Below, one piece after another: positions 1 through 848 of a stretch of 848 nucleotides of DNA (position 1 is the first letter of the stretch; every line of letters begins with the position of its first letter). The notes below the pieces were generated by a model. It was not told where the DNA came from. It made no database searches and was given only the letters and a program-made list of their open reading frames with translations. Made by a program: the position numbers and the translations under genes. This DNA comes from Escherichia coli. GTDB taxonomy: Bacteria > Pseudomonadota > Gammaproteobacteria > Enterobacterales > Enterobacteriaceae. Location of the stretch: the NCBI RefSeq assembly GCF_003334335.1, contig NZ_QOWQ01000145.1; one strand, 5' to 3'.

Positions 1-848
1 CTTTTCGCGCCGGTGTGTATTCCGGCTCCACCTGTCTGGCCAGTTGCTCCACCGTCAGCCCGCACTGCGCAAGCCACGCCCGGCTTTCACTGCTCACGCG
101 GTCTGCCCGGATTTCTTCCTCCAGCCTGTCCAGCAGCCGCACCAGTTCAGCCGGGAACACCACGCCGTGGCCGTTCTCACTCCCTTCCTGCTGGAGCGTC
201 TCTGCCAGGCTGCGCCGCTGCGCTTTTTCCCGCTCGCCGTTCTCTGTCTCGACCCGGATGAGCGGCGTGAAGCTTCCCGGCTCGTATACCGTCTGGATAC
301 GTGTGGTGTCAGTCTGCACCGTCGTCAGCCTGTCTCCGTCCCAGCCATACCACGTCACCTCCGGTTTACGCGACAGCGACATCCACCCCGTCAGGTCACG
401 CTCCCGCCGCCAGACCCGTTTTGCCATTCGCCGTCCCAGCGGGTCGTAGAGGTAGCGGCTCTCGACCAGTGGCTCGCCATGCTGTATCCGCGTGTAGAAC
501 ACCAGGCGGTGCTGGCTGTCGTAGTGGTAGTGGTGGGTCCGCTCGTCGTCCGTCCGTATCACACCCGCCGGGATGCGGTCCGTCTTCTCCGTCAGCCTGC
601 CGTATTCATCGTGGCGGTAGACATAGTGCGCATCCTCCGCGATGCGGTTATCCGGCCACACTGTGAGTGTACTGTCCGGGTGCAGCTCCGGGTCCGGCAG
701 CCGGTTGCCCGCCGGGTCCGTGGCATACGGGATGCGGATGTCCAGGTCTGGTGCGAGGGTGCGCACACTCTCCAGCCTGCCCGTGGCGCTGTAGCCGTAT
801 TCCCGCGTCTGTCGCGGGCCGCTGATGCGCACCAGGTCGCCGTTGTCA
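1..848 (-). CDS. rhs: Rhs-family YD-repeat core protein, internal fragment (partial at both ends; enterobacterial RhsA/B/C-type core; the variable C-terminal toxin domain is not in the window)
   Basis: The reverse complement read from + coordinate 847 gives 282 sense codons with no stop, ending at + coordinate 2. The window therefore sits entirely inside a longer ORF. The translation contains YD-repeat motifs: [10 protein letters not shown] (residues 16-25), [14 protein letters not shown] (75-88), [12 protein letters not shown] (107-118), [13 protein letters not shown] (131-143) and [10 protein letters not shown] (166-175). The 3' part ([97 protein letters not shown]) matches my recollection of the E. 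coli Rhs core shortly upstream of the core-terminating PxxxxDPxGL motif. Family assignment is from memory, not a search; 'rhs' is a family-level symbol and the paralog (rhsA/B/C/D-like) is unresolved. Confidence 0.88.

Follow-up and report, generated by a model that had tools for sequence, protein, structure and literature searches.

An 80-residue segment of the Escherichia coli Rhs core protein RhsD is, by structure prediction, a small helical module and no YD (RHS) repeat hairpin, and it is inserted into a single beta-hairpin turn of the Rhs shell. The segment lies at positions 11-250 on the minus strand of the window, by which we mean the whole stretch of 848 nucleotides that was analysed, and corresponds to residues 200-279 of the window translation and to RhsD 1071-1150. 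We somewhat favour a reading in which the segment would form an exterior, acidic accessory knob of five helices at the C-terminal pole of the shell, with a mainly passive role. The protein family, the family profile that covers the segment, and the equivalent site in solved homologues are already known; what is new is the predicted helical module of the E. coli clade at that site. As a discovery it is an ordinary one, since lineage-specific insertions at the surface are routine and the protein is well known.

Read on the minus strand from base 847, the window is a single open frame of 282 codons, and its translation corresponds to residues 872-1153 of the 1426 amino acids of E. coli RhsD. The window shows 100% identity with E. 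coli rhsD and, in K-12, with the rhsE pseudogene. It was found in 3823 of 5426 complete E. coli genomes; when sequences covered to at least 80% by the window are counted, the figure is 3802 of 5426, with a median of three copies per genome. RhsD matches the NCBIfam equivalog RHS_core NF041261 with 2787.7 bits (cut-off 2000) over residues 1-1258, which makes it a full-length member. The protein has a PAAR-like stretch at its N-terminus, the N-terminal plug domain DUF6531 (PF20148) at residues 46-123 (E = 3.8e-18), at least 7 RHS repeats (TIGR01643/PF05593), the Pfam RHS domain PF03527 at 1155-1190, which begins four residues past the 80-residue segment, and a TIGR03696 match at 1181-1258. The aspartyl autoprotease motif DPxG-x18-DPxGL is represented by DPMG at 1232, followed after 18 residues by DPMGL at 1254-1258; judged from this DPMG-x18-DPMGL motif at the end of the core, RhsD has a putative C-terminal autoprotease. 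The toxin that follows is 168 residues long and carries a DUF4329 domain. The protein is a textbook E. coli Rhs core protein, a member without differences of the E. coli RHS element core family (NF041261; RhsA-RhsE of K-12). The NF041261 profile covers the segment at positions 1074-1153, without sub-annotation there, and the segment alone matches these profile positions with E = 3.3e-40. In E. coli ER1709, rhsD is flanked by ybbP and ybbC, and in K-12 MG1655 rhsE follows yncH; in both cases vgrG is absent from the neighbourhood.

At the DNA level, the window offered no competing feature among those searched for. Rfam gave no match at E ≤ 1 on either strand, there were no promoter-like or terminator-like sites on either strand, and the repeats in the window were only short two-copy ones, as expected by chance. 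GC content was uniform (61-69%) and therefore gave no sign of foreign DNA. The plus-strand open reading frames at 13-261 and 15-449 were rejected as candidates; both lie antisense to an intact conserved gene and are without support.

The segment differs from the upstream core in composition. Compared to the upstream core, Glu was raised (18.8% vs 6.9%), whereas Tyr (1.2% vs 7.4%) and Gly (6.2% vs 9.0%) were reduced. The net charge of the segment is -7; it holds a single Tyr, lacks any YD motif and is not matched by PF05593. Sliding-window composition was calculated for all 1179 overlapping 80-residue stretches of the Rhs core. Among these, the stretches with the lowest Y+G+D+T content and the highest E/L/A/Q/R/K content start at 1066 and 1075, and within the repeat region only stretches starting at 1039-1077 hold one Tyr or fewer. 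Since the extreme stretches are centred on the segment, its composition is more than a chance fluctuation. The first-pass annotation of the window had described a charged segment devoid of YD motifs at 11-250, and that description was confirmed by the coordinates, which agree exactly, by the composition and by the scan of 1179 stretches. The parts of the window are as follows.

251..847, minus strand: YD-repeat part of the shell, ordinary beta-hairpins (RhsD 872-1070).
242..265, minus strand: last beta-strand of the shell, PLIRVETE, entry strand of the stalk (RhsD 1066-1073); alignments stop at ...PLIRVE, and AlphaFold2 predicts a strand.
11..250, minus strand: 80-residue helical insertion (ETENGE...EPEYTP; RhsD 1071-1150), with no Pfam domain and five predicted helices.
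221..241, minus strand: helix 1, NGEREKA (RhsD 1074-1080), predicted by AlphaFold2; short, polar and poorly conserved.
185..208, minus strand: predicted helix 2, LAETLQQE (RhsD 1085-1092), which holds L1085, the sole invariant residue of the insert.
152..184, minus strand: acidic Gly-rich loop (RhsD 1093-1103), with the lowest pLDDT of the insert (~68).
107..151, minus strand: predicted helix 3, the long amphipathic central helix (RhsD 1104-1118).
65..91, minus strand: predicted helix 4, SESRAWLAQ (RhsD 1124-1132), with near-invariant S1123 just before it and W1129 and L1130 conserved.
38..52, minus strand: predicted helix 5, VEQLA (RhsD 1137-1141), after a conserved CGL turn (L1135).
2..10, minus strand: start of the exit strand, ARK (RhsD 1151-1153), which runs past the window as HLYHCDH, the start of PF03527.

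A Pro-containing return linker, EPEYTP, comes after helix 5. The 80- and 75-residue forms found among the E. coli paralogues differ by 5 residues, and this difference maps to the loop at RhsD 1093-1103.

We used AlphaFold2 on the segment in two contexts. The first run covered RhsD 59-1258, a shell context of 1200 residues, with 81 aligned relatives, and gave a model with a mean pLDDT of 86.9 and a pTM of 0.81. In this shell model the insert was folded into five helices at 1074-1080, 1085-1092, 1104-1118, 1124-1132 and 1137-1141 (pLDDT 68-88), with moderate confidence (68-78) over helices 1 and 2 and the Gly-rich loop. The second run, on the isolated 100 residues RhsD 1061-1160 with a 36-sequence alignment, returned the same five helices with a pLDDT of 85.8, rising to 91-94 across helices 3-4, and paired the flanking strands (RhsD 1066-1073 and 1152-1159) as a stalk. 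The AFDB model of RhsD (P16919) superposed on the isolated module with a TM of 0.90. The 15-residue stretch of helix 3 has a hydrophobic moment of 0.69 and is strongly amphipathic. An all-helical prediction in two runs indicates that the segment does not consist of diverged YD hairpins. The expectation in the first-pass annotation of amphipathic helices rather than YD hairpins was thereby upheld, and the check it had proposed, structure prediction of the protein followed by comparison with solved shells, returned a helical insert on a shell of known type. Against the shells of Tse5, Advenella, RhsA, Tse15, S. bongori, Rhs1 and RhsP, the RhsD model gave TM values of 0.63-0.89, the best match being the Tse5 shell (TM 0.89 normalised to target, 31% identity). 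An internal duplication, in which helix 2-loop-helix 3 would repeat as helix 4-turn-helix 5, was tried and rejected with an hhalign probability of 1% over 9 aligned columns.

Searches with the segment identified no sequence or fold relative outside Rhs proteins among the matches listed from PDB, Pfam, PADLOC and AFDB50. Pfam gave no match on the segment, with RHS repeats upstream and PF03527 after it. A phmmer search of the segment against the PDB gave one chance match (E = 1.1), a profile of 36 sequences found only designed helical repeats in the PDB (E = 0.07 or worse), and PADLOC gave only a chance match (E = 0.018). The 50 AFDB50 matches listed for the isolated module were all Rhs proteins. 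Our search of the literature turned up no publication on the E. coli module.

To place the segment in the shell, we relied on the solved Rhs proteins. In phmmer alignments, all solved Rhs chains align to RhsD up to ...PLIRVE and resume at ARKAHLYHCDH, with linkers between these points of ~5-8 residues in P. protegens RhsA and in S. bongori Rhs, 33 in Tse5 and ~40 in Tse15, compared to 80 residues in RhsD. Because the solved chains align on both sides of the gap, the segment can be placed as an insertion in a single hairpin turn. With this turn the shell wall ends and the conserved C-terminal RHS/plug region follows, and in the structure paper on P. protegens RhsA the C-terminal region is described as spiralling into the cocoon and sealing it. 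All solved Rhs structures are without an RhsD-type module.

The nearest counterpart at this site is Helical Region 2 (1031-1062) of Pseudomonas aeruginosa Tse5 (PDB 8CP6), a cryo-EM-resolved helical protrusion on the shell surface (PMC10684867). Chain B of 8CP6 has 1121 residues, as does the published Tse5-Shell 48-1168; phmmer places RhsD 1072-1150 opposite Tse5 1030-1062 (chain index + 47), and the Tse5 linker is therefore residues 1030-1062. Helical Region 2 and the RhsD module occupy the same loop, between the strands ...F(V/T)PL(L/I)R(L/V)E and (F/L)(F/Y)H(T/C)DH, and share a helical content, which on the RhsD side is predicted. However, the Tse5 region has 33 residues against the 80 of RhsD and thus cannot hold the five-helix arrangement. 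No sequence homology with the Tse5 region was detected in the PDB with the segment alone or with the 36-sequence profile, neither of which matched an Rhs chain; with the flanks included, only the last dozen or so residues by the exit strand align weakly to Tse5. Neither P. protegens RhsA nor Photorhabdus Rhs1 has a Helical Region 2 (PMC10684867).

Two further solved systems show the same site in simpler forms. [quoted passage not shown] This loop falls within the linker that corresponds to the RhsD module, but the Tse15 linker (~40 residues) is half the RhsD length and partly disordered, with no helical module reported. In the PAAR-Rhs core of Salmonella bongori (PDB 8QJB/C/D), the loop 1312-1315, whose length differs most between the solved Rhs cores (bioRxiv 10.1101/2024.02.26.582050), is again the site of the RhsD module; unlike in RhsD, it is a minimal turn of about four residues with no module.

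The module is most likely exterior in RhsD, as judged by site homology and by volume. The same site is exterior in Tse5 and Tse15, and the module together with the toxin would overfill the cavity: the Rhs cavity measures ~25,000 cubic angstroms (bioRxiv 10.1101/2024.02.26.582050), and we estimate ~22,000 cubic angstroms for the 168-residue toxin and ~11,000 for the module. The first-pass annotation had left its role between a plug or lid element and a surface insertion. Of these, the surface insertion is favoured by the exterior loops of Tse5 and Tse15 and by the cavity volume, and the plug or lid finds no support.

To follow the segment across relatives, an exhaustive search with the RhsD core was run over 1.84 billion representatives and the best 150 relatives were taken, in which the linkers were delimited by anchoring on the two flanking strands. 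Linker lengths among these best 150 relatives ranged from 7 to 115 residues. A homologous version of 66-80 residues is present in E. coli, Shigella, Salmonella, Citrobacter, Enterobacter, Serratia silvae, Paracidovorax citrulli and P. avenae; the last two are betaproteobacteria, and the module thus spans two bacterial classes. These versions share the pattern [ST]LAxxLxQ...FPxELxxxLxxLExELRxGxxSxxSxxWLxQxGLxxEQ. As the first-pass annotation had supposed, the segment is not unique to this locus. Its proposal that the segment is conserved in the Rhs core of enterobacteria is supported by the NF041261 match, the 3823 of 5426 genomes and the several genera, and with the versions in Paracidovorax the module also reaches beyond the enterobacteria. 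Likewise, the alignment across Rhs subfamilies that it had proposed shows conservation within the lineage together with clade specificity, the segment being absent from P. protegens RhsA, from S. bongori Rhs and from some close relatives. Three such relatives, P0198, P0216 and P0264, have the same N-terminal architecture as RhsD and linkers of only 7-13 residues (DAPLRGA, 7 residues, in P0198). Because such short-linker relatives exist, the module is not required for the cocoon fold. For the dissimilar linkers of 70-115 residues in other Rhs relatives, a search space of 14 sequences yielded weak, collinear matches for P0207 and P0182 only, and these two are tentative remote homologues.

Within the module, L1085 is the same residue in all 36 representatives, and at least 90% of the sequences keep E1114, S1123 and L1130. 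The conserved hydrophobic positions of the module fall at helical spacing; in helix 3 they are 1106, 1110, 1113 and 1117, accompanied by the conserved E1114 and E1116. The net charge was negative in 36 of 36 representatives, with a mean of -6. Identity drops locally in the insert, to 50-61% vs 88-93% upstream, and this dip fits a solvent-exposed module. Typical values within E. coli are 61% in the insert vs 88-92% upstream and 75% downstream, and those for Serratia-like relatives are 27-33% vs 47% and 61-65%. Compared to four E. coli paralogues, the insert had a dN/dS of 0.09-0.39, and the shell portion of the window one of 0.11-0.24. These values indicate purifying selection on the insert, about twofold relaxed in the more divergent paralogue pairs.

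The toxins attached to the module differ: RhsD carries DUF4329, and the Paracidovorax protein carries TseH, accompanied by an Imm58 immunity gene. This indicates that the module belongs to the delivery shell and not to the payload. The Serratia silvae homologue that carries the module lies directly downstream of vgrG, and the Paracidovorax copy has no vgrG nearby.

From these observations we propose that a small, self-contained acidic module of five helices would be inserted in the one beta-hairpin turn of the Rhs cocoon at which the outer shell wall hands over to the conserved C-terminal region, which spirals inward and would make up the plug and the aspartyl autoprotease. On a stalk formed by the two flanking strands, the helices would stick out into the solvent at the C-terminal pole. 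The module would then be an accessory of the delivery container, kept in the lineage of Enterobacterales and Paracidovorax regardless of the toxin. Its work is most likely passive: it would buttress and shield the seam beside the C-terminal plug, and it would add a negatively charged, protruding knob to a shell surface that is already acidic; T6SS Rhs shells are reported to be highly negative outside (bioRxiv 10.1101/2024.02.26.582050). The module itself probably has no catalytic or gating role. Against a purely passive role, the strong conservation of E1114, E1116 and S1123 is not readily explained, nor is the retention of the module from E. coli to a betaproteobacterium.

The same two observations could be accommodated by a more active function, in which the module would serve as a docking handle for a T6SS partner (VgrG spike, adaptor or chaperone) or for a target-cell factor, or as a latch that opens the C-terminal pole for toxin release. 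We regard this as possible, although doubtful. Wide phylogenetic retention with conserved polar residues (E1114, E1116 and S1123), the position of the module adjoining the conserved C-terminal plug region, and the Serratia homologue directly downstream of vgrG are all compatible with such a function, and the literature acknowledges that the manner and place of Rhs shell opening have yet to be settled. The faster divergence between E. coli paralogues could also mean co-variation with paralogue-specific partners, but dN/dS stays below 1 with no sign of diversifying selection, and most surface positions are poorly conserved. Moreover, no partner is known or predicted, relatives of the same N-terminal architecture do without the module, and the VgrG contacts in solved systems are made through N-terminal regions, for example through the clade domain of Tse15 (PMC11461821).

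The correspondence with Tse5 raises a second alternative, namely that the module is a membrane-binding amphipathic helical region, functionally equivalent to Helical Region 2. That region was proposed to seat the Tse5 shell on the target membrane on the basis of molecular dynamics only (PMC10684867). The shared topological site and the strongly amphipathic helix 3 (moment 0.69) fit this idea. However, the RhsD module is strongly acidic, and a net charge of -7 in RhsD and of -6 on average over the 36 homologues is unfavourable for binding to anionic bacterial membranes. The conserved hydrophobic positions fit the core of a folded bundle, which is predicted with high confidence even in the isolated piece. 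The module also goes with toxins unrelated to the Tse5 pore former (DUF4329, TseH), none of them a pore former, the searches detected no resemblance in sequence to the Tse5 region, and the Tse5 proposal itself comes from simulation. For these reasons, we consider membrane binding very unlikely.

Still less probable is an interior element, which would fold into the cavity as part of a plug or lid or offer a chaperone surface for the unfolded toxin. The segment does immediately precede the inward-spiralling region that seals the cocoon, and in P. protegens RhsA an amphipathic helix on the inner wall serves as an anchor, though at the N-terminal end. Yet the homologous loop is exterior in the Tse5 and Tse15 papers, toxin and module together would by our estimate not fit a cavity of ~25,000 cubic angstroms, and the module varies faster than the shell, which is unexpected for a functional plug in the interior. 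Finally, the view of the segment as only diverged YD hairpins or structureless low-complexity filler, the outcome that the first-pass annotation had named as contrary to its own reading, could appeal to the fact that the segment on its own matched nothing in Pfam, the PDB or PADLOC and to its absence from several solved Rhs proteins, but it is contradicted by five helices and no strands within the insert in two AlphaFold2 runs (pLDDT up to 94), by a conserved hydrophobic pattern with invariant and near-invariant residues, by dN/dS of 0.09-0.39 and by a length held at 66-80 residues across two bacterial classes, and we give it almost no credence.

The proposed exterior five-helix knob bears on two published descriptions of Rhs shells. 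The surfaces of T6SS Rhs proteins have been described as smooth and without decorations (bioRxiv 10.1101/2024.02.26.582050), and an acidic helical module in the E. coli clade, larger than the Tse5 region and present whatever the toxin, modestly qualifies that statement. Similarly, Helical Region 2 of Tse5 was linked to a membrane-acting toxin and reported to be absent from homologues with enzymatic toxins (PMC10684867), a report that is modestly qualified by an E. coli-clade module that goes with toxins not of the Tse5 type. Rhs proteins are among the commonest T6SS effectors, and the literature treats both the loading of their sealed shells onto the spike and the later opening of these shells as unsolved. 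If the module were a lineage-specific handle at the C-terminal pole, which would dock a T6SS component or a target-cell factor or whose displacement would trigger shell opening, it would open a direct way into the unsolved question of how toxins leave Rhs cocoons, although we judge this unlikely. The module is also a cleanly excisable element for tests of Rhs delivery and for engineered Rhs cargo carriers.

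Besides the acidic five-helix insert of RhsD, two further stretches of the shell depart from the hairpin pattern, one inside the window and one outside it. They are given here together with related rhs copies, loci and proteins.

Features of RhsD and of related loci and proteins
Window 626-724, minus strand: Pro/Asp-rich non-hairpin stretch of about 33 residues, RhsD 913-945, sequence [35 protein letters not shown]
Locus L002, 4142-4216: a further stretch of the RhsD shell lacking YD character (RhsD 252-276), beyond the window, with structure predicted by AlphaFold2
Window 130-240, minus strand, with database proteins P0027 and P0003 and locus L005: part of the insert segment, translated out of frame in some database proteins
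Locus L001, 6001-6848: rhsE copy of the window in E. coli K-12 MG1655
Locus L009, 8001-12829: Rhs with a homologous insert, Paracidovorax avenae

In the AlphaFold2 model the Pro/Asp-rich stretch (model residues 855-887) has no regular secondary structure and a pLDDT of 76-85. Immediately downstream lies a W(P/A)(D/G)NR motif at which RhsD can be aligned to Tse5, the solved Rhs effector of Pseudomonas aeruginosa, and this adjacency places the stretch at roughly the position of 'Predicted Helical Region 1' of Tse5 (residues 873-914; PMC10684867). Identity to relatives is also lowered just upstream, at RhsD residues ~839-900. The element outside the window is predicted to form a helix (model 194-207) followed by a Ser-rich stretch, within which model residues 213-218 are the only internal region with a pLDDT <50. 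This element may be the counterpart of the first Tse5-specific protrusion, which spans Tse5 residues 141-167 (PMC10684867).

The insert itself varies among E. coli Rhs paralogues: at RhsD 1093-1103 (window 152-184, minus strand), the loop joining helix 2 to helix 3 contains an indel of 5 residues. RhsD- and RhsC-type copies carry an insert of 80 residues with the loop EGSE(N/D)GHG, and another paralogue type carries one of 75 residues with the loop EDTG. In the Paracidovorax locus, the Rhs bearing the homologous insert ends in a C-terminal toxin of the TseH type. Downstream of this gene come an Imm58 immunity gene and then a series of small unannotated genes, and no vgrG was found within 8 kb of it.

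Across the entire 848 bases of the window, intact rhsD and the rhsE pseudogene of E. coli K-12, an N-terminally truncated copy adjoining ydcD, are 100% identical, as would be expected if one locus had recently been duplicated from the other or if gene conversion had taken place between them. Part of the insert segment is translated out of frame in some database 'proteins', among them P0027, which reads ...[29 protein letters not shown]..., a sequence very similar to the translation of the window in another frame. In addition, the annotation of one E. coli copy describes it as a pseudogene with a frameshift. Together, these records indicate that frameshifts in rhs copies, or errors in sequencing, occur commonly at this segment.
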